Positions 16,349 to 36,426 are shown, counted from the first letter of the stretch. The stretch: DNA of 64,000 nt from a virus (IMGVR_UViG_3300046314_000658); one strand, 5' to 3'. A program made the numbers and translations. The notes: generated from the sequence alone by a model not told the origin.

Positions 16349-16608
16349 CGTCGTTTTGTCGCACCAATACGACTATTTTTGTTCCAATCGTACGAAGTAC
16401 CATCTGGTAGTTTGCCATCTGCAACAGTGTCTACCCCACTTTTGCCGACGCTGTTGACATTCTCACTAACCATGGTGACAAATAACATCCCTAGCTGTCG
16501 AAACGATTCTGTGTACCGCAGAGCTTCTTTTAACTCCGCCACTTGATGTGAGTGGGGGAATCTTGTAATAGGATCGGTGTAATACACTACATATTCTGTT
16601 TTTGTCAT
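16345..16608 (-). CDS. Conserved phage hypothetical protein
   Basis: FVTMVSEN.NSVGK.GVD.V.DGKLPDG..YDW.K pattern typical of large-phage small proteins. Confidence 0.65.
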   Translation of the reverse strand: MTKTEYVVYYTDPITRFPHSHQVAELKEALRYTESFRQLGMLFVTMVSENVNSVGKSGVDTVADGKLPDGTSYDWNKNSRIGATKRR

Positions 16609-18132: not shown

Positions 18133-18366
18133 TTACTTCTCCTGAGATTTAGACTGGGTCTGTGCTGCCGCTGTTTGGCACACACTTTGGTTATTTGTAG
18201 AAACACCATTCGTTGCACAGTGTGCAGCAATAGGATTGGCACCTTTAGCGACCATTTCTACAATGGCTTGGCGAGTTGTAGCACGGTCGTATGTAACACA
18301 CATAATTACTGCAATGAATACGAGTGAAATACAAGCGATTATAGATACGTCAAATCGGGTCATCAT
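18133..18366 (-). CDS. Small membrane protein
   Basis: N-terminal TM; GANPIAAHCA. Confidence 0.65.
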   Translation of the reverse strand: MMTRFDVSIIACISLVFIAVIMCVTYDRATTRQAIVEMVAKGANPIAAHCATNGVSTNNQSVCQTAAAQTQSKSQEK

Positions 18367-19184
18367 GCAGTTACCTTTGCTGAAGTTGGGATAGATGTGA
18401 AGGCTACCACTTGCGAAGGGCTGTTTTCCAACTGTAGTCCTGGAGTATCGTTGACCATTGTGGCACGGCTTGTGATAGGGCCTTTGCCTGCACTTGCAGC
18501 ATCAGCTAGTACAGCAGAATCCATTTCCGCAAAAGCCCGATTTATCGAGTTGACCACTGAGTCAATAGCTGCATCTGTCTTCAATTGTGCCATTGGATCT
18601 TCACTACCCATACCAGCTAGCGCATTTGCTTTTTGTAGCGCTTGGCTCATCTTCCAGTTAGCGCGAAGGAATTCAATTTGTTCATCCATTAGTTTGATAT
18701 TACTCTGCAATTCAGAGTACTTGTCTTGCTTGAATTTCAGTGCTTGCTTCATAACATCAAGCTGTGCTTTGTATCGAGGAGCTGCATCTGGATATTTTTT
18801 AGCGAACCCTTGCGTCATAGTTTCGAAATTATTCACTTCCGTACCATATGCAGTTATTGCTTCTAGTTGCTGCTTGCCACGGTTCTTAAATGCTTCTGAT
18901 TGTGTCACAGCAGTTTCGATGGGATTATCTGCTGCTGCTTGTTGGACCTTTTCGAGGTGTTGAACTTTCTCGGCATCAATTGCACGATACTTCATGTTTG
19001 AAGCTTTTAATGCAAGCACTGGTGCTACATTAATACCGATGATACCGATGATGCCCGCAATTGCGATACCGACCATGCCCGATACTGCAAGCCATGCGAC
19101 TGGAGCAGCCACTGCAACTGCAAAAATTGTGATGCCCCATTTGATCAGATTGATCTTACGTTGCTTTTGAATACTATCTTCCAT
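18363..19184 (-). CDS. Membrane-anchored coiled-coil protein (possibly PspA-like)
   Basis: Two TM helices followed by a long heptad-rich helical region; ATG 19184 with AGGA RBS. Confidence 0.65.
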   Translation of the reverse strand: MEDSIQKQRKINLIKWGITIFAVAVAAPVAWLAVSGMVGIAIAGIIGIIGINVAPVLALKASNMKYRAIDAEKVQHLEKVQQAAADNPIETAVTQSEAFKNRGKQQLEAITAYGTEVNNFETMTQGFAKKYPDAAPRYKAQLDVMKQALKFKQDKYSELQSNIKLMDEQIEFLRANWKMSQALQKANALAGMGSEDPMAQLKTDAAIDSVVNSINRAFAEMDSAVLADAASAGKGPITSRATMVNDTPGLQLENSPSQVVAFTSIPTSAKVTA

Positions 19185-19246
19185 TTTATATCCTATAAGT
19201 TGAGAAAGGGACTGAAACAATCCCATAAAAGAAACATGGGGGCTAC

Positions 19247-19444
19247 TTAGCAACCAAAATACTTGATAATGACTTCTAGTGCTGGGAGAAGTGTTGTTTG
19301 GTTGAAGGCTAAATCTTCCGGATGCATGTACTCGCCTTTTTTCAAGTGTGCTTTTATTTCTTTTTTGATCAGCGAGCGCTGATCTTTCAGTACGAGCACG
19401 GTGATCGCATCTGCTGCTTTGTGATCGAGTTCGATTTTACTCAC
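19247..19444 (-). CDS. Hypothetical protein
   Basis: GTGA overlap with the upstream ORF. Confidence 0.6.
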   Translation of the reverse strand: MSKIELDHKAADAITVLVLKDQRSLIKKEIKAHLKKGEYMHPEDLAFNQTTLLPALEVIIKYFGC

Positions 19445-19985: not shown

Positions 19986-20702
19986 ATGATTATTAACAAC
20001 AACGCAAAACACCACGTACTGTACGTGTGTCAAGAATCTATAATCCCACCAGGAATTGACTCGCTTATGGAGCAGTTGAGTGAACAACTTGATATCCAAT
20101 TTGAACGGGTATCGTCCGTTCGTGCAGTGTTGGAAGCAGCTGGGAATTTTGCGGTTAGCATCGATGCTATTGTGCTAGACATCGATTCGCTAAACGATGG
20201 TGAGGGGGCTACGATATTTGATATTGTTAATACCATCACAACGCTACTACGCTATCACAAATTGGCTTCAAATCCTCAATGCACAACCGAAAACTTACCT
20301 GCCATCGTTGTAGGAGTAAATGCTACAACAGATCCGAAGCGTATCCGCGAGTTGCTGGCGATTGCAAATATTTCTGGAGTATACCCAGGTGGATACGATT
20401 TCTCACTCAATGAAAAAATCACAGCAATGCGTGAATTCATCAACAGACGGTACCACGTCCCGAAGTCGATAAAGCAACTGCTATCTACCAAAAGCAAGGT
20501 GATAGGTCAAGAGGTTCCCAATGCGCTCACCACTAGACAATCCCAGATTTTGGATTTGGTCATTACAAGAGGAGCAAGCAACAAAGCGATTGCAAATATC
20601 CTCCACATTACAGATAGTACAGTGAAGTTGCACATGACATCAATCCTGAAAAAGTGTGGTGTACGGTCACGGACACAACTGGTCGCATTTCACACAAAGT
20701 AG
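19986..20702 (+). CDS. LuxR/NarL-family regulator (degenerate receiver-like N-domain + LuxR HTH)
   Basis: IDAIVLDI receiver-like strand; LTTRQSQIL..GASNKAIA..LHITDSTVKLHMTSILKK.GVRSRTQ; GGAGG RBS. Confidence 0.9.
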   Translation: MIINNNAKHHVLYVCQESIIPPGIDSLMEQLSEQLDIQFERVSSVRAVLEAAGNFAVSIDAIVLDIDSLNDGEGATIFDIVNTITTLLRYHKLASNPQCTTENLPAIVVGVNATTDPKRIRELLAIANISGVYPGGYDFSLNEKITAMREFINRRYHVPKSIKQLLSTKSKVIGQEVPNALTTRQSQILDLVITRGASNKAIANILHITDSTVKLHMTSILKKCGVRSRTQLVAFHTK

Positions 20703-20817
20703 TACGTAGCACTTTATAGACTGGTAGCAGAAATGCTTAGATCATCCACAAAATCTGCGGTTAAATAATTATGAGAGATGACTGATTTAAGCGTCTCTAT
20801 TCTTAGGAGAAATAATT

Positions 20818-21372
20818 ATGGCAGATATGACAATGGATCCATTCTACGCACTTGCACGTGAGATTGAAGCGACTAAAACTAAAGTATCGGATGGTATTTT
20901 CGAGAACTACAAACTTCAAGTTGCTCAAACAAACGACATTAACAACCGTGCGATGCAAGTTGCACTACACGACGCGACTGCACTAGCAGATCTAAAACAG
21001 GCTGTAGCTGACGGCACACTACAGACGATGCTTGCAGCTTCTCGTACAGACGCTGCTATCGGTGCTACCAGCGCTGCTGCACAACGGTTGACAATGGAGC
21101 AAGCAGAAGCAACTCGTCGCCTAATGGTCGACTTGAACACCCAAAACTTGAATACAGCATTGATCAACACCAATACCGCGCTAAATGGACTAAACGGACA
21201 GTATGCTGGTCTAGGTCTCGCTTACGGTGGTGCAGTTTCTGCTTACCAAAGCGCAAACCAAGCCAGTGCATTAAACGCTCTAAACAGCGCTATTGCTAGC
21301 CAAAGTTCTAACGTCATCGGCGCAGGCGCTGTTGGTGGTACTCAAACAGCAACACCAACTACAGTTGTTTAA
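20818..21372 (+). CDS. Ala/Gln/Asn-rich helical protein with a conserved C-terminal tag
   Basis: AGGAGA RBS; TAAATA at 20762. Confidence 0.8.
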   Translation: MADMTMDPFYALAREIEATKTKVSDGIFENYKLQVAQTNDINNRAMQVALHDATALADLKQAVADGTLQTMLAASRTDAAIGATSAAAQRLTMEQAEATRRLMVDLNTQNLNTALINTNTALNGLNGQYAGLGLAYGGAVSAYQSANQASALNALNSAIASQSSNVIGAGAVGGTQTATPTTVV

Positions 21373-21392
21373 TCAACTAAAGGAGGTTCATT

Positions 21393-21578
21393 ATGTATGG
21401 GTCACGATGGGGTTGGGGTAGTTACCCTCGCGGATATCTCGGAGCTGGCATTGGTTATCCATATAGCCCTCTGATATATCCTGGGTACTACCCTGGATAT
21501 GGCTACCCTGGATATGGATACGGCGGATACGGCGGATACAGTGGATACGGTTACTCATATCCATACGGACCGTACTGA
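21393..21578 (+). CDS. Gly/Tyr/Pro-rich low-complexity protein
   Basis: AAGGAGG RBS; YPGY/GYG repeats. Confidence 0.75.
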   Translation: MYGSRWGWGSYPRGYLGAGIGYPYSPLIYPGYYPGYGYPGYGYGGYGGYSGYGYSYPYGPY

Positions 21579-21591
21579 AGTAGGCAGCACA

Positions 21592-21622
21592 GTGAACCAG
21601 CTCACAAGGTTGGTTCATTTTT
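21592..21622 (+). terminator. Hairpin/terminator within the cassette
   Basis: gtgaaccagc-tcacaag-gttggttcat followed by tttt. Confidence 0.6.
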
Positions 21623-21639
21623 AGTTTAAGGAGAAAGAT

Positions 21640-21855
21640 ATGTTTGGTAATTATATGTACCCAGTTTATAGAAGTCCATACTACGCACAAGCGTGGGGGT
21701 TCCCTGTGTGGAATATGGGTGGTTATTCTGGTGGTTATGGTGGATCGTATGGAACTAATATTTTTGGTAGCGCAATTGCTAACCAAAACATGAATGTGAT
21801 TGGTGCTGGTGCGATTGGTGGATCGCAAGTAGCTACTCCAACAGCGATTTGGTAA
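21640..21855 (+). CDS. Gly/Tyr-rich small protein with the same C-terminal tag as 20818
   Basis: AAGGAG RBS; C-terminus NVIGAGAIGGSQVATPT. Confidence 0.75.
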   Translation: MFGNYMYPVYRSPYYAQAWGFPVWNMGGYSGGYGGSYGTNIFGSAIANQNMNVIGAGAIGGSQVATPTAIW

Positions 21856-21864
21856 GGAGTTAAT

Positions 21865-22548
21865 ATGTACAAAAAAATCACACACAATGTAGTGGAGGAA
21901 CACTTCGCTCACCCACTCGCAGCGCAATTGAAAAAGCAAATTGATAAGACGAAACCAGCCCCACCAAAAAACAAAGAAACGCTCACAGGACCGTTGGACC
22001 TCGATGCACACAAATTGTTTAATAAACTGCACTGGGGTGTGCGGAACTACGTAGTTAGTGCGCTCGGTCCAAACGATGATAGCACGATACTAATCAAAAC
22101 GACACTACTAAAAGATGTTTTAGAATTTGCACCATTTTTTAATGCATATTATCCAACTACAATTGGATCATCGGTTGTAACCCACCTAACTGGATTTGTC
22201 AATTCAGTTACGGACGTGGTGCAAGCAGCTCGATCCGGAAAAGATTTTACATCACCACTTACTGCTACACGAGGACATCTCGATGCACTAGCGGGAGTTA
22301 TCAGTGCTGCTAATCAAACGAGCTGGCCCGCACCAACAGTTAAGGCATACCTTCATGAATATTTAATGAAGGTGGTCGATCAGATAATTGCGCGCACTAA
22401 AAAGGATTGGAAAGCTGATCTAGAAGCTGCGACACTAGCACACAATGTTTTAACTACAGGACCAATTTCCTTCGGAACACTCAAAAGCAGTCCTGATTTT
22501 GCGTGCGTAGTAGTTAACGGAATTCGTAATCAATTCCCGATAAAGTAA
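21865..22548 (+). CDS. Helical-bundle protein, paralog A (resembles an uncharacterised family of spore-forming Firmicutes)
   Basis: F..YY...HL...V.AA.SG...W....L.EYL...AR..DW..D...GI..QFP pattern. Confidence 0.7.
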   Translation: MYKKITHNVVEEHFAHPLAAQLKKQIDKTKPAPPKNKETLTGPLDLDAHKLFNKLHWGVRNYVVSALGPNDDSTILIKTTLLKDVLEFAPFFNAYYPTTIGSSVVTHLTGFVNSVTDVVQAARSGKDFTSPLTATRGHLDALAGVISAANQTSWPAPTVKAYLHEYLMKVVDQIIARTKKDWKADLEAATLAHNVLTTGPISFGTLKSSPDFACVVVNGIRNQFPIK

Positions 22549-22557
22549 GGAACCAAT

Positions 22558-23256
22558 ATGTACAAAACCATCACACACAACATCGTTGAAGAGCATTACG
22601 GTCAAGATCAAGGAGAACGGCTGAAATATGTCAATCCTCAAACGGGATTAACAGACTATCTCCCTCAATTTGTAATGAACGAAAACACAATGACTTTTAG
22701 AATGGACTCGAGGTCAATTTGGGCCAAATATGCTTGGGGATTGTTAAATTACGGCATCAGTATGAATGCTGGCCTACCAGTGATGGAGCAAGTAGAGGCA
22801 AGGGTGTTTAAAAATGCACGCGCTTTAGGAGATTTCATTACTCCATACTACGGTATTACTGCTGGATTGCGATTTGGTGATTTGCTGTCTAGTATTGGCC
22901 AAGTAGGCATTGATGTAGTCAAAGCTACAAAAGAAAAAGAGTCGCTCGACAAGTATAAAGTAATGTGGGCTGACCACATTGCAACACTTGCCGAATTTCT
23001 AAACGAGCTCAACCCCAACAATTGGCCTGAAGTTACTACAACTGAGTATCTTACAAATATGGTAAGTTTTTGGGTCGATGAGATTCAAGCGCGGGCGGCA
23101 AACAATCAGAGTGCAGATGAAGCAGCAATCGAAAGCTTAAACAAGTTGATAGTGATGGGTATACCAAATAGTGTGCCGAGTCACAAAGCCTCGAGTTTGA
23201 GTGATTTGTTCAGTCGCGGAATAATTGCACAGTACCCAGCGCTGTTTGCTGCATAA
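22558..23256 (+). CDS. Helical-bundle protein, paralog B
   Basis: R.IW..Y...NA..LG..ITPYYG...F..LL...LA.FL..LNP.NW...GII.QYP pattern. Confidence 0.7.
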   Translation: MYKTITHNIVEEHYGQDQGERLKYVNPQTGLTDYLPQFVMNENTMTFRMDSRSIWAKYAWGLLNYGISMNAGLPVMEQVEARVFKNARALGDFITPYYGITAGLRFGDLLSSIGQVGIDVVKATKEKESLDKYKVMWADHIATLAEFLNELNPNNWPEVTTTEYLTNMVSFWVDEIQARAANNQSADEAAIESLNKLIVMGIPNSVPSHKASSLSDLFSRGIIAQYPALFAA

Positions 23257-23276
23257 TCATAGTTAAGGGGGTAATT

Positions 23277-23858
23277 GTGAACGATACAGAACACAAAAAA
23301 CGGATGCAAGTGCTTCGAATGGCTGAAATTATTCTGAAGGAAGAAAATACCAAGCAATTCAACGCAGAGTACAGAGGTTGGATTGCATCCAACGATGTAT
23401 CATGGCGGACGCGGGGAATCAAATTAGCAGTTCCAGTTGCACCTTCTCCTCCAACGGAGGAGGCGATTGTAGCAAGAGCACTTGAGTTCTACAAAGCTGC
23501 TGTAGTTGATACAGCATCTCCATTAGCAACTGCGGCGCCTGCAGCAATCATATCTAGCGATAATGAGGGAAGTACTGATACTGTACCAACAATTACTGAG
23601 CAGCACTCAGTAACTACTGAATCGACCGAGGTCGGTGACGAGGCACCTCTTCCCGTTGTAGACTTGGTATTGGACCCAGTGCGAAAAATATTCGAAGCGC
23701 CTGCTTCTGTTGATATCGAACTTAATAGTCCTACTGAACAAGCGTCTGTTACTGATGTGCCTACTCTCACTGTACCCACATCTGGGGTGCGAGATATGTT
23801 AGCAAGTTTGTTTCAGCAAAAAAGCCAATCCAATAAGACGAGGTCACTAAATGTTTAA
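23277..23858 (+). CDS. Hypothetical protein with disordered acidic C-terminus
   Basis: AAGGGGG RBS, GTG start; PPTEEAIVARA motif. Confidence 0.65.
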   Translation: MNDTEHKKRMQVLRMAEIILKEENTKQFNAEYRGWIASNDVSWRTRGIKLAVPVAPSPPTEEAIVARALEFYKAAVVDTASPLATAAPAAIISSDNEGSTDTVPTITEQHSVTTESTEVGDEAPLPVVDLVLDPVRKIFEAPASVDIELNSPTEQASVTDVPTLTVPTSGVRDMLASLFQQKSQSNKTRSLNV

Positions 23859-24345
23859 TGCACTGGGGATATATTCGAGTCACAGCACTCTGTTGCCAAT
23901 CATGGGGCGGCGAGTGACATACACCCAGTTGCGTTCACCAAATCGACTACTAGCAACACCTGGAATACAACTAGGTGGTAATGGAAACGATGTTATCAAC
24001 ATTGGTGGAGGAGAGGTTGGTCCACCAGGACCTCTTGGTCCACCAGGACCTCCCGGTACTCCCAGTTTGGTGCCTGTAACTATAGTTACTGATACACCTT
24101 TCACTGTGACATTGACTGATTATCTACTGGATATTAATGTAGCAGCACCAAGCTCTGTTATATTACCAATCAGTCCAACAGGAACAGTATTTGTCGTTAA
24201 AGATATATCAGGTAGCGCATCGACTAATGTAATTATTGTTACGGGATTGGGCGCAGCAGTTGACGGTAACGCAACTGCTACTATCAACACAGATTACGGC
24301 AGCATAACGCTGATATTTAACGGCACTGAATGGAACATCATATAA
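23851..24345 (+). CDS. Short collagen-like protein with C-terminal beta domain
   Basis: GPPGPLGPPGPPG; V.LP..TG.VFVVKD..G...VDG...INT.YGSITL.FNGTEW. Confidence 0.75.
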   Translation: MFNALGIYSSHSTLLPIMGRRVTYTQLRSPNRLLATPGIQLGGNGNDVINIGGGEVGPPGPLGPPGPPGTPSLVPVTIVTDTPFTVTLTDYLLDINVAAPSSVILPISPTGTVFVVKDISGSASTNVIIVTGLGAAVDGNATATINTDYGSITLIFNGTEWNII

Positions 24346-24896
24346 TGTCACACAACACACCACTAGCATCTACAACCAATTTTGGTCTTATAAAGGTAGG
24401 TACCGGCTTGAGCGTTACTGATGGTTTAGTAACAGCCACACCAGGGTTACTAAATTACGGGTTCTTTACAGACGGTACGCAAACTAACCCAGTGGCTAGC
24501 GCCGTAAACATCACAAGTTTTACCAACTCGGGGCCTGCAAACGGAATTAGCGTTGTAGGAGGAACTAACATTACCGTGGTAAATGCGGGTGTTTACACTA
24601 AAATGTTTACAGTGATGGTATCAAAAACATCAGGTGGCACAAGCTCTGTAAGTTTTTGGTTGAGATATAACGGCATAGACGTAGCTGGCTCTAGACAGGA
24701 TTTGGAGTTGATTAACACACTAGTGCTCGTTTTCGCGTCAGGTAATTACACTATTGCAATGACTGCTGGAAGCTACATTCAATTATGTTGGAGCAGCGCA
24801 GATACAACTGTAGCATTAACTGCTTTGCCAACGGCAATAGCACCAACTAGACCAGCTGGCGACAGTGTTAAAGTCACACTTACGAGGATTTCATAA
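24345..24896 (+). CDS. C1q/TNF/BclA-C-terminal-like beta-sandwich protein
   Basis: NGISV..TNITV.NAGVY..F.V..FWLR.NG.DV.GS..AGSYIQL.W; TAATG coupling. Confidence 0.65.
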   Translation: MSHNTPLASTTNFGLIKVGTGLSVTDGLVTATPGLLNYGFFTDGTQTNPVASAVNITSFTNSGPANGISVVGGTNITVVNAGVYTKMFTVMVSKTSGGTSSVSFWLRYNGIDVAGSRQDLELINTLVLVFASGNYTIAMTAGSYIQLCWSSADTTVALTALPTAIAPTRPAGDSVKVTLTRIS

Positions 24897-25195
24897 TGGC
24901 TATCAACCTAGACATAACTGTAGTAACAACTACTCCGTACACAATATCTGTTGATGATTCTGTATTGCTAGTAAACGTCCCCGGCCCTGCGATTGTCAAA
25001 TTACCTAGCGGCAGCGGCGGCAATGAAAAGCGTTCGTATATTATCAAAGATACGTCTGGAAACTCAACTACAAATCCTATCACCATTACAGCCAACGGCG
25101 GGAGACTAATTGACGGAGTCGCATTTGCCATGCTTAATGGTGGATACAGCCACATACAAGTCGTATCCAATGGTTCAACCTGGTTTACTATTTAA
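24896..25195 (+). CDS. Small beta-domain protein (paralog of the 23851 C-domain)
   Basis: V.LP...YIIKD.SG...NPITI...IDG...NG.TW; TAATG coupling. Confidence 0.75.
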   Translation: MAINLDITVVTTTPYTISVDDSVLLVNVPGPAIVKLPSGSGGNEKRSYIIKDTSGNSTTNPITITANGGRLIDGVAFAMLNGGYSHIQVVSNGSTWFTI

Positions 25196-25228
25196 GTAAC
25201 CAACTCTTTTTAAATAAGGAAAATAAAA

Positions 25229-25630
25229 ATGTCATATACAAACAACTCGCTGTCAATAGTTGGTGGCGCTGGTATCACAGTAACACCAACAACCAACACT
25301 GGTGCTACAACAATCACACTAGATGCGATAGCGGGTCCAGATATTCTAACAGTGCGAATTGCGACCACCACACCAGACGCCGTGTTAATAACGGACGAGA
25401 TGGTAAGTTATGAAGTATCTGGCCCAGTTGCCGTAGCAGTAACACTACCTACTGGCGTAACAGGTCAGGTATTCTATCTCAAAGATGGTCTAGGTCTCGC
25501 AACGACTGCTAATCCCATCACGATCACACCAACAGCCAGTACAATTGATGGTGCAGCAACTGCTACTATCAATGTTCCGTATGGTGCACTGACGTTAGTG
25601 TACAGCGGCACGGAGTGGAAAATTCTATAA
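25229..25630 (+). CDS. Small beta-domain protein (paralog)
   Basis: VTLPTG.TGQVFYLKD..G...NPITI..IDG..INVPYGALTL..SGTEW; TAAATA at 25211. Confidence 0.75.
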   Translation: MSYTNNSLSIVGGAGITVTPTTNTGATTITLDAIAGPDILTVRIATTTPDAVLITDEMVSYEVSGPVAVAVTLPTGVTGQVFYLKDGLGLATTANPITITPTASTIDGAATATINVPYGALTLVYSGTEWKIL

Positions 25631-25639
25631 CATTGTAAC

Positions 25640-26374
25640 ATGCACGAACTCAGAGCAGACCCCGTTGATTTCAGAGACTTTGCGTATCAAGTAATTGGCA
25701 CTCCACTCAAACGTGTCATAGATTTGCGTCCGTGGGCAAGTCGAGTTGAGAATCAAGCAGATCTAGGTAGTTGTACTAGTGCCGCTGTAATTGGTGCGTA
25801 TGAATTGTTACTAAAAAAGACAACTCCCGGTAAATTCGACGAACTTAGTAGCCTATTTGTGTACTACAACGCTCGTGTTTTAGAGGGGTTTCCGAACGAT
25901 GATGTTGGTGCATATCTCCGAACAGCAATAAAAGCGGTTCACAAATATGGGGTATGTATGGAAGAATTGTGGCCATATCACATACAAACTTTTACACTAC
26001 TTCCACCAGTAGAATGCTACGAAGATGGCAGCAAGCGAAAGATTAAAAACTACAATCGACTATCAGGCATTGTAGATATTCTGGATGCTATTAACCAAGA
26101 GCGGCCAGTGGTAATTGGAGTGGATCTATATGATGAGTTCGAACAACTGGATGCGTGCAATGCTACACTACAAAGTCCAGCGAAAGATCAATCGCCAAGT
26201 GGTGCCCATGCGCTTTGTTTAATTGGGTACGATTTGGATCGTCGGGTATTGTTGTGTAGAAATAGCTTTGGAGAGGAGTGGGGTCTAGGTGGATATTTCT
26301 GGATGACGTTCGAATATGCCGAGCGAGAAATGATTGACGCTTGGGTATTTGACATTGATTTATTTGAGCACTAA
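25640..26374 (+). CDS. Papain-like cysteine peptidase (family C1)
   Basis: DLR..VENQADLGSC (Gln/Cys), GAHAL (His), RNSFG..WG..GY (Asn). Confidence 0.92.
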   Translation: MHELRADPVDFRDFAYQVIGTPLKRVIDLRPWASRVENQADLGSCTSAAVIGAYELLLKKTTPGKFDELSSLFVYYNARVLEGFPNDDVGAYLRTAIKAVHKYGVCMEELWPYHIQTFTLLPPVECYEDGSKRKIKNYNRLSGIVDILDAINQERPVVIGVDLYDEFEQLDACNATLQSPAKDQSPSGAHALCLIGYDLDRRVLLCRNSFGEEWGLGGYFWMTFEYAEREMIDAWVFDIDLFEH

Positions 26375-26384
26375 GGAGAATCCT

Positions 26385-26900
26385 GTGGCATATTCAGGGC
26401 AATCATCTATCAATTTAGGAAAACAACATGACACAAATCGACAAAATACAAATTCGGACGTGCTCTACTTACCGAGAGATTGCATCGAGCGAGATGTACA
26501 AGACGCACTTAGAATTGGTAATACTGAGGGCGCAAGTGGAGTGTCTATCATCACGGGTCCGCCGGGGCCAAAAGGAGATCGAGGGCCTCCAGGATTGCCA
26601 GGCTTTCACAGCTGTGAGTGTAAAACAACAACGATTGATAGTGATTACGTCACTTCTATTGACGATTATTACATTGGGTGTATCAATAATACCCCGATTA
26701 CTGTAATTCTCCCGATGCAACCAGATAGAGCTGTTGAGTTGGTGATTAAACGGCAGACTGGAGTAGCTACTGCAGATGGAACAGTCTCGGTCAAGACTGC
26801 AGATGGTGCATTAATCGATGGGCAACAAAGCCACACGATTCGTAACCCGTTTGGTGTTTTACGAATCGTGTGGAACTCAAATAACTGGTTTAAAACTTGA
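26385..26900 (+). CDS. Collagen-like protein with C-terminal beta domain (paralog)
   Basis: AAGGAG RBS + GTG; GPPGPKGDRGPPGLPG; DYYIG..V.LP..IDG..NNW. Confidence 0.75.
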   Translation: MAYSGQSSINLGKQHDTNRQNTNSDVLYLPRDCIERDVQDALRIGNTEGASGVSIITGPPGPKGDRGPPGLPGFHSCECKTTTIDSDYVTSIDDYYIGCINNTPITVILPMQPDRAVELVIKRQTGVATADGTVSVKTADGALIDGQQSHTIRNPFGVLRIVWNSNNWFKT

Positions 26901-27333
26901 TAAACATATCATCAATATTGAACAGAAAGCGGCGGCGCATGTTTTCCAACACACTATCAGGCACCCCGTGAATTGAACCGAAGTTAGACTGAGCCAAGTA
27001 GACAGTAGGGTTTTGTCCATACTGCTGGATCATATCGAAATAGACTTGCAGTTCTTTCTTCGTCGTGAAAGTGTTGGACACAATTACAGTTGCGCCTTGT
27101 GCAAGACCATTAGCGCACTGCTCTTGGCACCAAGCATGAGCTTCGCCGATTCGCATTCCATCCCAGTTGTAGTTCCCATCAGCATCAGTAAAGAACTGGT
27201 CTGCTTCGTAGTGGTACGCAGGCACATCATTCAACACGTATGAATGTAACAATCGACGTGCAAGGGTACTTTTACCACTCCCAGGCAGGCCGCGAATCAG
27301 TGCAAGAGTTGGAGTTGAGTGTTTAGCTTGCAT
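26890..27333 (-). CDS. P-loop kinase (AAA_33 / polynucleotide-kinase-like)
   Basis: IRGLPGSGKST, EADQFF, VIVSNT, SIHGVP. Confidence 0.85.
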   Translation of the reverse strand: MQAKHSTPTLALIRGLPGSGKSTLARRLLHSYVLNDVPAYHYEADQFFTDADGNYNWDGMRIGEAHAWCQEQCANGLAQGATVIVSNTFTTKKELQVYFDMIQQYGQNPTVYLAQSNFGSIHGVPDSVLENMRRRFLFNIDDMFIKF

Positions 27334-28297
27334 TTTGTGTCTCCAATCGATTGTGGTGCTCTAAGATAACTTTACTGATGTCAGCATCTGTCATTGCATT
27401 GACGACAGCTGGAGTCAAAACAACTTTCAATACTTTCATCAGCTCCCCAAGGCGAGCGTTCTCGCGGCTAGTGAGTTCTTTAACAATATCTCCATTGAAT
27501 TTTAATGCTGCAGCTTCAATTTCAAACTTGCGTCTCCACAATTCGTCAAATTCTGCTTTTGCATGAGGAAATGCTTTGAAGATTTTGTGGTGGTACACAG
27601 TCTTGTCAGCATCAAACTGATAGAACTCTGTCTTCACAGTCTGTGTCTTGCACCATTCTAGGAATGCGGTGTAAGTAGCGCGCTTGCGATCGCGAACACG
27701 TGCTGTATGGTTACGGTTCTCCAACAAGAAGATATCAGGATTGAAGTATTTGCTTGCTGCTACAGCTTCGAAGATTTCCTCGAGAGTATCCAGTTCACCG
27801 TATGTAAAGTCTCCAAATTTATCAATCTCTGCTGGGTCAGTGGATAACAAGATTTCACCAAGCGTATGATCCTTGCTACGAACAGGAAACCACAAACCGT
27901 CGTGACCAAATTTTAATCCCAACTTATGGTGAATTCTCCCTCTCAAATTACCGAAATCATTCGACCCAAAATAATTAGATGCTACTGCAAATTCAGTGAT
28001 TGTTGTAGTAATCAAATCAATCTGTAATTCACGAAATACCAATGACCACACCCCACCATTGTGACTAACTTCATCGCTTGTGCACCCGAAAGCGTTTTGT
28101 AGCAACTTTGTGGACAGTTCTCGAGCTGGGATGAACAGTACATCCATATCACCAAAAGAAGGTTTGGTGCTAAAGGCTTTGATGGCTTCAGCTTTGGCAG
28201 CGAATGTATTGACAATATTCAATACAGTTGGCACCAACGTATGGTACTCGTCAGCATTGTATCGTCGAGTTTTACCTGGAAACACATTACCACCCAT
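27323..28297 (-). CDS. Nucleotidyltransferase-fold (Pol beta/PolX-like) protein
   Basis: MGGNVF, K.SFGDMDVL (GDxD), QIDLI. Confidence 0.75.
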   Translation of the reverse strand: MGGNVFPGKTRRYNADEYHTLVPTVLNIVNTFAAKAEAIKAFSTKPSFGDMDVLFIPARELSTKLLQNAFGCTSDEVSHNGGVWSLVFRELQIDLITTTITEFAVASNYFGSNDFGNLRGRIHHKLGLKFGHDGLWFPVRSKDHTLGEILLSTDPAEIDKFGDFTYGELDTLEEIFEAVAASKYFNPDIFLLENRNHTARVRDRKRATYTAFLEWCKTQTVKTEFYQFDADKTVYHHKIFKAFPHAKAEFDELWRRKFEIEAAALKFNGDIVKELTSRENARLGELMKVLKVVLTPAVVNAMTDADISKVILEHHNRLETQNAS

Positions 28298-35295: not shown

Positions 35296-36426
35296 CTAGT
35301 CTTTCATTTTCGACAAATATAAATTTGAGATTGCTTTCCAGGTGAACCGCTTGCGAGAGTTGGCCTTGAATACAAGTCCTTCACGGTTTACGGTTGGGTT
35401 GATCAGAGACTTGCCATCAGCCATTTTGATAACATCGTCGATCGTCTTGTCACCAAACGTCCAGTTAGCATCGACGAGCGGAGCTTGTGTGAAACCATAC
35501 TTTGCTGCAAATTCTGCACGCTCAGTGGGATCCATATAGCGCCCCCCTTCATTAGGCAACTGCACATCAAATAGACGGAACTCGTGCTTATTCAACTTAT
35601 AATGATTTTGCTGGACGCCTGGCCCAATTAATTCAAATTGTACAGCGATGTCTTGACCAAATTCACGTAGTTTTTGCTCTACGCCCAAAGCACGAGCAGT
35701 ATCCCAAAAGGTATTTCCTTCTGTTTCCTTTAGATCAAGATTTCGCGAGCACGTACCAAATTCTCCATCCAAAATATAACAGGTAGTGGACGACCCTTCA
35801 CACTTCTCTTGCACTTCGTATGTTTCCGCTTGAAGCACGCCGTTGGCAAACGCACGGGTCAGATTTTGGATGCGTTCCTGATCAGTTTTCACAATTCGAG
35901 ACGGAAAGTTACCACGAGCCATACCAGCGAGTTGGGCGGAGACTGGTGCTTCCCACTTTTGAATGCCAAGCACGTCTGTCACGTCATCACCTTCAATAAC
36001 AAATCCACCCATAGGGTTGCCACAAAGTTCAACCATCTTGTCAGTTACCACTTTTACAGGAAGCAGCAAACCCTGGGAGATTTGCCCCTTCAACCTGATA
36101 GTTCGCAGCTTTTCACCATCAACACCGTTGTACGTCTTCGGAAAGTGACCGGGCTTCGTCAAGAACGGAGCAAGAGTATTTGGGATGAAGCTGTCAATTT
36201 CAAAATATGCCGCAAGCGAGCCGACAGAAAATTCCCCTTTTTTCACCACTACGTCCCAGTTGAGAACCCGTGCAACCTCGATGTTATCTGCACCTTCAAT
36301 AGGTGAGATGGAGACGATTTTTTGAATTGTGGCGAGCTTGCGGAAGCGCACTGCTTCGGCGATCGTTTGGCCTTCTGCATTGAGCAGTTCTGCAGCGGGG
36401 GTAGATGTAATATTGATTTCTGTCAT
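35296..36426 (-). CDS. RNA ligase (DRB0094/Rnl2-like, with N-terminal OB fold)
   Basis: RKLA..PIEGAD.IE, LKGQISQGL, KTDQERIQN, EKCEGSS, ELIG, FD, REGLV, KAIS. Confidence 0.9.
   Translation of the reverse strand: MTEINITSTPAAELLNAEGQTIAEAVRFRKLATIQKIVSISPIEGADNIEVARVLNWDVVVKKGEFSVGSLAAYFEIDSFIPNTLAPFLTKPGHFPKTYNGVDGEKLRTIRLKGQISQGLLLPVKVVTDKMVELCGNPMGGFVIEGDDVTDVLGIQKWEAPVSAQLAGMARGNFPSRIVKTDQERIQNLTRAFANGVLQAETYEVQEKCEGSSTTCYILDGEFGTCSRNLDLKETEGNTFWDTARALGVEQKLREFGQDIAVQFELIGPGVQQNHYKLNKHEFRLFDVQLPNEGGRYMDPTERAEFAAKYGFTQAPLVDANWTFGDKTIDDVIKMADGKSLINPTVNREGLVFKANSRKRFTWKAISNLYLSKMKD

Follow-up and report, generated by a model that had tools for sequence, protein, structure and literature searches.

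What does a giant phage make with a block of thirteen genes that brings its own regulator and encodes collagen-like, C1q-like, and Gly/Tyr-rich proteins? The question is raised by positions 19,986 to 26,900 of a 64,000-nucleotide stretch (hereafter the window) of the viral sequence IMGVR_UViG_3300046314_000658, where one operon of approximately 7 kb, headed by a regulator gene, lies on the + strand between neighbors encoded on the - strand (hereafter the cassette; genes g01 to g13, Table 1). The IMG/VR viral record from which the window is taken measures 139 kb, has an estimated completeness of 52%, and belongs to a giant (jumbo), uncultured, lake-derived, T4-like myovirus. An earlier note, made from the sequence alone, had proposed that the cassette is a regulated multi-gene assembly kit similar to that of the exosporium. 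Our analysis retains the single regulated, co-occurring kit and a likeness of g09 to exosporium proteins at the level of the fold. No sign of a spore-coat-like shell, of virion occlusion, or of protection of the infected cell was found, and the fiber parts proved to be of virion type.

We favor, tentatively and at a little less than an even chance, the reading that the cassette is an autonomous, optional, and separately regulated operon whose products assemble into a fibrous layer of several components, a hair or nap on the virion, because its fiber parts are of types known in phages only on virions and because hair-bearing jumbo phages exist. New in the present analysis are the co-variation of the C-terminal tails of g02 and g04, the conservation of a terminator-like hairpin, the swapping of heads between fiber stalks, and the finding that the proposed TAAATA late-promoter sites look non-functional.

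Co-occurrence in other genomes had been set beforehand as the test of the proposed kit. The gene order was read by tblastn of all cassette proteins in two sets of IMG/VR loci (5 from a search with g05 and 42 from a search with g02), and it recurs in both: the LuxR gene, g02 (one or two copies per locus), the Gly/Tyr micro-proteins, a helical-bundle gene, g07, a collagen/beta protein, a protein with a C1q head, further beta-domain proteins, a second tagged protein, and a C1 peptidase. In all, some 45 contigs of uncultured freshwater jumbo phages share this order, each time in a different genomic setting. Presence was counted among the 28 loci with at least 8.5 kb of sequence after g02. The helical-bundle and g08-type genes are each found in 27 of these loci, the g11 type in 25, g07 in 23, the peptidase in 20, and g09 in 19. 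The LuxR gene heads the block in 21 of the 28, which argues against ordinary tail-fiber subunits unrelated to the regulator. Orthologues of g13 are confined to the divergent loci L134-L136. The direct neighbors of the window's cassette adjoin it in no other locus, so that the block is a self-contained module. At least 758 homologues of g02 were detected in lake and other metagenomes (60-99% identity, on contigs of up to 367 kb), and no published description of the cassette was found in the literature. The cassette is common. For five of its protein families (g02, g03, g04, g07, and the helical bundle), however, neither a function nor a related fold has been described.

Proteins encoded in the cassette

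The products of g02 and g04 share an uncharged C-terminal tail of 26 residues, rich in Gln, Asn, and Gly. Two types of this tail occur (..IGAGAxGGxQ.. and ..VNTGxxxGxxQ..), and the types carried by g02 and g04 agree in 28/28 loci. Smaller joint changes were also identified (Gln replaced by Asn in L103/L133 and L116, TPTN in L117), and at least three joint changes are separate events. This pattern, read from aligned sequences, points to a direct pairing of the two tails or to one common partner, and the co-varying pair represents a compact and testable protein-joining motif. The g02 protein carries a core, KVSDSIFENYKLQVAQTNDINNRAMQ, that is unchanged even in copies at 40% identity. It had no match in Pfam, PHROG, or NCBIfam, nor in PDB as a single sequence or as a profile, and no longer fused forms were found. 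A search of the ESM Atlas gave unnamed viral clusters only.

As the earlier note described, g03 and g04 are small Gly/Tyr-rich proteins. The N-terminus GxYPRGYLGAGIGYPY of g03, which has the strong Shine-Dalgarno sequence AAAGGAGG, is kept in relatives, and the g04 family follows the pattern MFxGYxYPxYRS, a variable Gly/Tyr/Pro tract, and then NIIGSAIANQ..G..Q.ATPTVIW. Curli-type features were searched for in g02 to g04, with no Pfam or NCBIfam match and no signal peptides. The lack of an obvious signal peptide, noted earlier, extends to the whole cassette: transmembrane or signal-like segments were found in none of its proteins (the maximal Kyte-Doolittle mean in a 19-residue span was 1.5).

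The two helical-bundle proteins, g05 and g06, are indeed paralogues (28% identity, E = 6.5e-17), and the AlphaFold2 model of g05 (predicted local distance difference test score, pLDDT = 88) is a predicted 7-helix up-down bundle. The bundle corresponds to no Pfam family and to no convincing PDB fold; fold searches gave generic helical matches only, rhodopsins and designed bundles among them (Foldseek E > 0.2, VIA Z <= 9.4), and no known fold is claimed for it. Sequence searches of PDB with g05, as a single sequence and as a profile, returned nothing. In BFVD, the g05 fold was found in uncharacterized proteins of uncultured phages, in a protein of Bodo saltans virus (template modelling score, TM = 0.7), and more weakly in a Tupanvirus protein (TM = 0.55, E = 0.08). 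A profile search recovered 2,421 representative clusters, including bacterial and archaeal forms, and the helical bundle by itself thus defines a large, uncharacterized domain family. Members from bacteria and archaea have signal peptides and a tandem duplication, and some are fused to CBM6/35, to a type IX secretion system (T9SS) sorting domain, or to a cupredoxin domain. Secreted, tandem-duplicated members were observed in Chloroflexota, Acidobacteriota, Bacteroidota, Actinomycetota, Verrucomicrobiota, and Bathyarchaeota (P0157, P0162, P0173, P0199, P0231; loci L010-L089), and the bacterial and archaeal forms retain many His/Asp/Arg positions that are lost in the phage copies. None of the remaining cassette genes is present in the bacterial loci with helical-bundle homologues, and thus no bacterial counterpart of the cassette was found.

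In place of a signal peptide, the phage helical-bundle proteins begin with a tag, MYKKITHxIVEEHFDHP, which is 90-100% kept on paralogues whose remaining sequence is 25% identical. This portable module of 17-20 residues also occurs on unrelated small proteins and is perhaps metal-binding. Its other carriers include a His-rich 62 amino acid peptide, Cys-rich proteins with PxSYQPA...CxNC, and a 96 amino acid helical protein (L105:3333-3521, L123:15356-15886, L129:9670-9960, L007:9082-9360). Genes bearing the tag usually sit immediately before the peptidase gene, and in relatives this position is usually held by the type-2 helical-bundle gene (g05 type).

The g07 product had no family match in Pfam, PHROG, or NCBIfam. 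In its orthologues, a kept N-domain of 75 residues is joined by an acidic linker of Pro, Glu, Thr, and Val, which varies, to a C-terminal peptide that is short, basic, and amphipathic, a layout that, as judged from these alignments, is that of a tether. In four loci, the stretch that separates the helical-bundle gene from g07 also encodes a coiled-coil protein of 76-89 amino acids, hydrophobic at one end (L003:11461-11691, L005:10711-10962, L006:6007-6276, L007:6357-6596), which is missing in the window.

The papain-like protease recognized earlier in g12 matches Pfam Peptidase_C1 (PF00112; E = 1.8e-13, 51.5 bits against a cut-off of 20.7), PHROG 16701 (E = 4e-18), and the xylellain-type structure 3ois (E = 5.7e-34), and its Gln/Cys/His/Asn motifs were identified by eye (NQADLGSC, GAHAL, and NSFGEEWG). 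The alignment with xylellain of Xylella fastidiosa covers 230 residues and retains the catalytic motifs; g12 differs in that it has no counterpart of the initial ~37 residues of 3ois, the alignment beginning at chain residue 38, and in that it is encoded within a phage fiber operon. The earlier note proposed that the cassette brings its own maturation protease; as the g12 type is missing from 8 of the 28 loci, the protease is not an obligatory maturation step.

In the back half of the cassette, the four copies of one small beta domain announced by the earlier note were found in g08, g10, g11, and g13. A profile of the beta-domain family matched residues 66-138 of T4 gp10 (5hx2, 2fl8; E = 1e-4) and a second gp10 (E = 8e-4), and on this sequence evidence the domain is homologous to XD1, the N-terminal domain of T4 gp9/gp10 (PF07880). 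The match covers these gp10 residues alone, and no XD2 or XD3 branching domain was detected. Single beta-domain sequences fall below the Pfam cut-off (T4_gp9_10_N in g10, E = 0.0015), and the sub-threshold Pfam and PHROG matches of these proteins are to gp9/10, tail-fiber, and baseplate families. Orthologues of g11 are 60-83% identical.

The description of g08 and g13 as collagen-like holds in part. In the window, their tracts have 6 GXY triplets each and are under the Pfam cut-off (g13, Collagen E = 0.006), but the g08 orthologues pass it, with 35-123 bits against a cut-off of 27.2 and 5-69 GXY triplets. The C1q/BclA-like domain stood up better: the AlphaFold2 model of g09 (pLDDT = 80) is a TNF/C1q jelly roll, and its best Foldseek matches are the heads of Bacillus exosporium proteins, namely the C-terminal domain of F-BclA (E = 1.3e-8), BclA (6e-8), and BxpB and ExsFA (1.2e-7), with a probability of 1.0 and a target-normalized TM-score of 0.6-0.7. 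Lower matches were 4-1BBL and a chain of the cyanophage A4 portal-tail complex. At the sequence level, g09 had no Pfam match at E < 0.1, and its profile matched PDB entries weakly (ExsFA, E = 0.022; ExsF, E = 0.11). Among cultured phages, a g09-type head forms the C-terminus of two proteins: one of 349 amino acids in phiAC-1, whose gene directly follows that of the major head protein, and one of 478 amino acids in Limnohabitans phage DC31.

In one relative (L115), a single protein joins the N-module of g08 and a GXY tract to a g09 head, a true BclA-like architecture, and the MSYKxPLAS module is borne by both head types. As read from these sequences, the back half encodes four to five short fiber proteins in which the N-terminal module can be exchanged, a stalk may or may not follow, and the C-terminal head is either of the gp9/gp10 XD1 type or a jelly roll of the BclA/ExsF type; such modular construction is common in phage fibers. 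No match to the exosporium leader peptide (TIGR03720) was obtained with NCBIfam in g08, g13, or their orthologues. A search of the complete 139-kb record for DUF4183 (PF13799) returned nothing at E <= 10, and a link to F-ENA via this domain was therefore rejected. Just upstream of the cassette, two loci carry genes that resemble sugar enzymes when judged by eye (L005:354-6446, on a contig shared with L119, and L006:1162-2160), of NAD-dependent sugar epimerase/dehydratase-like, methyltransferase-like, and glycosyltransferase-like types. By analogy with BclA, the fibers of these loci could be glycosylated.

Transcription signals of the cassette

The identification of g01 as a LuxR-type helix-turn-helix (HTH) regulator is borne out by its match to Pfam GerE (PF00196; E = 8e-15, 54.6 bits against a cut-off of 23.5). 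A canonical receiver was not found, as there was no Response_reg match in Pfam; by eye, the Asp within VLDID is the only fitting residue, other residues standing in place of the acidic pair, the Thr/Ser, and the Lys. The best NCBIfam match of g01 is CsgD (residues 56-235, E = 5e-14, 52 bits against a cut-off of 250). A LuxR-HTH activator with a degenerate receiver, beside an operon that encodes self-assembling subunits, one major and one minor, is also found in LuxR-activated matrix operons, such as curli csgBAC under CsgD and Bacillus spore-coat genes under GerE, and the Gln/Asn/Gly-rich composition of the shared g02/g04 tail is a further likeness. The cassette differs from these operons in having neither secretion machinery nor curlin repeats, and its CsgD score is far under the family cut-off. 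We regard the comparison as an analogy only.

Two classes of promoter-like sequence are found in this phage. The first is an early type, GTTGACCTTTTG-N-GGGTATAATA; the second is a T4-late-like [A/C]TAAATA located ~28-31 nucleotides before start codons, which is 9-11-fold enriched upstream of genes and precedes tail-fiber, baseplate, split ribonucleotide-reductase, and ATPase genes. Early-type promoters, TGTTGACCTTTTG-N9-GGGTATAATA, cluster within the first 32 kb of the record, and examples of the promoter classes in the window lie at 16349, 37189, 37664, 61378 (-); 30997, 41380, 47420, 52545. The cassette contains neither class, and the operon would thus probably be driven by another activator, for which its own LuxR-type protein, to judge from the gene content, is the obvious candidate.

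The earlier note had placed TAAATA late promoters at 20762 and 25211, and neither withstands inspection. The former reads TTAAATA, stands at a distance of 56 nucleotides, and lies inside a 26-nucleotide partial copy of the g02 start region; the latter is part of the ribosome-binding context TAAATAAGGAAA. In relatives, [A/C]TAAATA precedes 5 of 362 cassette genes, which is the background rate. The sequence TATAAATA was also considered as a late promoter and rejected (3 sites against 2.8 expected). No LuxR-box-like sequence is conserved in six g02 upstream regions, which contain locus-specific hairpins only. The partial copy mentioned above (in the region 20754-20826; 77% identical to the g02 translation start region and 47 nucleotides upstream of it) holds a mini open reading frame, ATG AGA GAT GAC TGA (MRDD), followed by the inverted repeat AGAGATG..CGTCTCT, and in each related locus this place is occupied by a hairpin of its own.

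A different hairpin follows g03 (21591-21619) and continues into TTTTAGTTT. A matching hairpin precedes g04 in many relatives, where the stems co-vary and the loop CUCACAAGG is retained. This hairpin would result in a higher output of g02 and g03 than of the downstream genes. A retained loop is unusual in a plain terminator, and its conservation suggests that it may be a binding site for a protein or an RNase. The loop form (C)UCACAAGG was observed at L095, L101, L103, L113, L115, L116, L118, L120, L125, L127, and L129.

Candidate functions of the cassette

If the cassette forms a virion hair or nap, g02, g03, and g04 would be its bulk material, with g02 and g04 co-polymerizing via their tails to give a helical plus Gly/Tyr-rich matrix that the tagged helical-bundle proteins and the tether protein g07 would organize or anchor. 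Short trimeric fibers would dock on this matrix via their N-terminal modules and display lectin-like heads, and the xylellain-like protease, where present, would trim at least one partner, the tag being a candidate target. The LuxR/CsgD-like regulator, and not the usual early or late promoters, would switch the operon on, making the decoration conditional. Some jumbo phages are known to bear hair-like appendages on the capsid or tail (PMC13282480; phage CBB, PMC5259590), and the passages cited do not name the proteins that form them. The PTm1 capsid fibers and the tail hairs of Erwinia Y3 and Pectobacterium CBB resemble the present case in being extra filamentous decorations of large myoviruses; they differ in that no sequence link to the cassette was found. 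A virion hair layer would supply a gene set for such appendages, and the phage would be rendering its virion decoration conditional through its own response-regulator-like switch.

Several observations weigh against this reading. Both g02 and the helical-bundle protein g05 had no protein match in 50,697 cultured phage records. The [A/C]TAAATA motif of the tail-fiber and baseplate genes of the same phage is missing from the cassette, which lies among replication and auxiliary genes, an unusual place for virion parts. Since g02, g03, g04, g07, and the helical bundles have no known structural relatives, the roles assigned to them here are purely inferred. The protease and the regulator are missing at some loci, and shared clade ancestry could be part of the cause of the tail co-variation. 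In addition, the XD1-type domain, common to gp9, also serves to bind glycans in two proteases that bacteria secrete (PMC8825819), and a place on the virion is thus not proven by the fold alone.

Some of these points are also expected of an assembly outside the virion, the idea of the earlier note: an intracellular or post-lysis matrix, coat, or inclusion that carries fibers as an outer nap in the manner of the exosporium. Such an assembly, which we consider unlikely, might be a keratin-like composite of helical filaments and a high-Gly/Tyr matrix that embeds or bundles the progeny or coats the infected cell. It would suit an operon that has its own regulator, whose best full-length match is the matrix regulator CsgD, that lacks the promoter motif of the virion genes, and that is placed among auxiliary genes outside the structural module. 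The exosporium-type parts are also real (the g09 fold and the L115 fusion), and Gly/Tyr-rich proteins resemble spore-coat and keratin-associated matrix proteins, in composition only. However, the cassette has no shell-forming or membrane-targeting part and no signal peptide, a cross-linking enzyme was not found by Pfam or NCBIfam, and neither the exosporium leader peptide nor DUF4183 is present; moreover, its heads and beta domain are of kinds for which virion fibers are the only known place in phages. A separate coat would be a new kind of viral structure. In its fullest form, to which we give the same low standing, it would be a composite material with no counterpart in virology, in which a high-Gly/Tyr matrix surrounds helical g02 filaments, co-evolving beta tails form the joints, and an exosporium-like collagen/C1q and lectin-like nap lies on top. 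This optional coat on particles, clusters, or the infected cell would be controlled by a LuxR pseudo-receiver switch that senses the state of the host, and it would protect or aggregate the progeny in lake water.

The comparison with the exosporium can be drawn part by part. On the exosporium nap and the endospore appendage tips of the Bacillus cereus group, collagen-like BclA or F-BclA with a C1q-type head is anchored on the TNF-like trimer ExsFA/BxpB (PMC10470788; PMC12357932). The cassette shares the jelly-roll fold of g09, for which exosporium proteins are the top Foldseek matches, collagen stalks of variable length (with the full N-module, GXY tract, and C1q head in the L115 relative), and a small stand-alone head protein beside a collagen protein. 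N-terminal peptides are probably docking pieces in both, and a protease may process parts of the cassette as BclA loses its first 19 residues. In contrast, the cassette has no exosporium leader peptide, no ExsY/CotY-type basal-layer proteins, and no DUF4183 subunit; its sequence similarity to ExsFA is marginal (E = 0.02), most of its heads are of the gp9/gp10 type and not of the C1q type, and its carrier is a phage of a probable proteobacterial host, not of a sporulating Firmicute.

The homology of the beta domain to the gp9/gp10 N-terminal domain also suits an ordinary adsorption apparatus, in which the gp10-domain proteins would be branches or adaptors of the baseplate or tail fibers, as in Ackermannviridae or RaK2-type complexes, and the front-half proteins would be chaperones. 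We hold this to be rather improbable. Head swapping is typical of receptor-binding proteins, and the closest cultured relatives of the phage are XacN1, PA5oct, and Rak2-like jumbo myoviruses, the last of which have complex fibers (PMC10253068, PMC9700779). The domain itself recalls T4 gp9/gp10 and the branched receptor-binding complexes built on gp10-like domains, namely those of the T4 baseplate, CBA120 TSP4 (PMC8825819), and RaK2 (PMC10253068), as it is homologous, likely trimeric, and modular, with varied partner modules. In the cassette, though, it is C-terminal, sits on proteins of 89-190 amino acids, often after a collagen stalk, and comes with no detected XD2/XD3 or tailspike bodies, in genes outside the baseplate module. 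The proteins are tiny (99-190 amino acids) and lack enzymatic or long fiber domains; the matching domain is XD1, which has no part in trimer-to-trimer branching in either T4 or CBA120 (PMC8825819); g02 is too conserved and, by the operon layout, too abundant for a chaperone; and the baseplate genes lie 45 kb away under other promoters. The least probable of the readings considered is that two functions travel together, the tagged helical-bundle proteins and perhaps g02 to g04 being packaged in the head and the back half forming a separate fiber set. The tag would then be a targeting signal, perhaps similar to the T4 capsid-targeting sequence, MKTYQEFIAE, and would end in Ile-Val-Glu like a T4 prohead-protease site, where cleavage follows (L/I)-x-E; its portability and its conservation on divergent paralogues and unrelated small proteins agree with such a role, as does the T4-like character of the phage. 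Yet front and back halves occur together in 27 of the 28 loci, conservation of the tag extends beyond the putative cleavage site (EEHFDHP), its four His and two Glu make it look more like a metal-binding or docking helix, and tag-bearing genes adjoin the C1 peptidase gene and not head genes.

Gene layout and genomic setting

All 13 open reading frames (ORFs) listed in the earlier note were recovered, and the strong ribosome-binding sites and translational coupling that it described correspond to strong Shine-Dalgarno sites and to gene overlaps of 1-8 nucleotides, the longest being that of g08 with g07. Two starts were reconsidered. Most likely, g09 begins at 24345, as indicated by the starts of its orthologues, and g13 at the GTG codon at 26385, which follows an AAGGAG site, and not at the TTG codon at 26334. 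The revised start of g13 gives an N-terminus, MAYS, typical of the fiber proteins of the cassette.

Table 1. Coordinates (window positions) and features of the cassette.
Feature	Position	Strand	Description
g01	19986..20702	+	LuxR/FixJ-family regulator, degenerate receiver-like N-terminal half (CsgD-like architecture)
g02	20818..21372	+	184-aa (amino acid) helical Ala/Thr/Leu/Asn-rich protein, 26-aa uncharged C-terminal tail; probable bulk subunit
g03	21393..21578	+	61-aa Gly/Tyr micro-protein, 31% Tyr, 31% Gly
Hairpin and T-run between g03 and g04	21591..21627	+	Terminator-like, 12-bp stem
g04	21640..21855	+	71-aa Tyr/Gly/Pro-rich protein, tail as in g02
g05	21865..22548	+	Helical-bundle (HB) protein, type 2, N-terminal tag MYKKITHNVVEEHF
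g06	22558..23256	+	HB paralogue, type 1, N-terminal tag as in g05
g07	23277..23858	+	Tether-like protein; 75-aa N-domain, linker, basic C-terminal peptide
g08	23851..24345	+	N-module MFNxLG, 6-GXY collagen tract, C-terminal gp9/gp10-type beta domain
g09	24345..24896	+	N-module MSxxxPLAS..G..KVGxGL, TNF/C1q jelly-roll head, BclA/ExsF type
g10	24896..25195	+	Stand-alone beta domain, 99 aa
g11	25229..25630	+	N-module MSYTNN, then beta domain
g12	25640..26374	+	Papain-family (C1A) cysteine protease, no signal peptide or long propeptide
g13	26385..26900	+	N-module MAYS, 5-6 GXY triplets, Cys-containing beta domain

The surroundings of the cassette include genes for a DnaB-type helicase, an RNA ligase, a homing endonuclease, and an endolysin-like protein, and the rIIA, baseplate wedge (PHROG E = 5e-207), baseplate hub, tail tube, and tail-fiber genes lie 45-80 kb downstream. 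By their baseplate wedge (31-34% identity), the closest cultured phages are the jumbo myoviruses XacN1, Xoo-sp13, CM1, RsoM2USA, and PA5oct, and distant relatives in culture include the CBB-type (Rak2-like) group. The signature cassette proteins are missing from these five phages, and there is no DNA match to the cassette among cultured phages. As the closest cultured phages grow on Xanthomonas, Stenotrophomonas, Ralstonia, and Pseudomonas, the host is probably proteobacterial.

The gene directly upstream of the cassette (18363-19253, -) encodes a 296 amino acid protein of PHROG 27316 (function unknown) that combines a hydrophobic segment at its N-terminus with a long helical region, and it was not found beside the cassette in other phages. 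At 26890-28297 (-) and 35296-36426 (-), a P-loop kinase gene (AAA_33, PHROG 2071) overlaps the gene for a 324 amino acid protein that matches PHROG 24943, annotated as 'DNA polymerase', and the RNA ligase gene is 7 kb away. The P-loop kinase, the PHROG 24943 protein, and the RNA ligase may together constitute an RNA-repair set.

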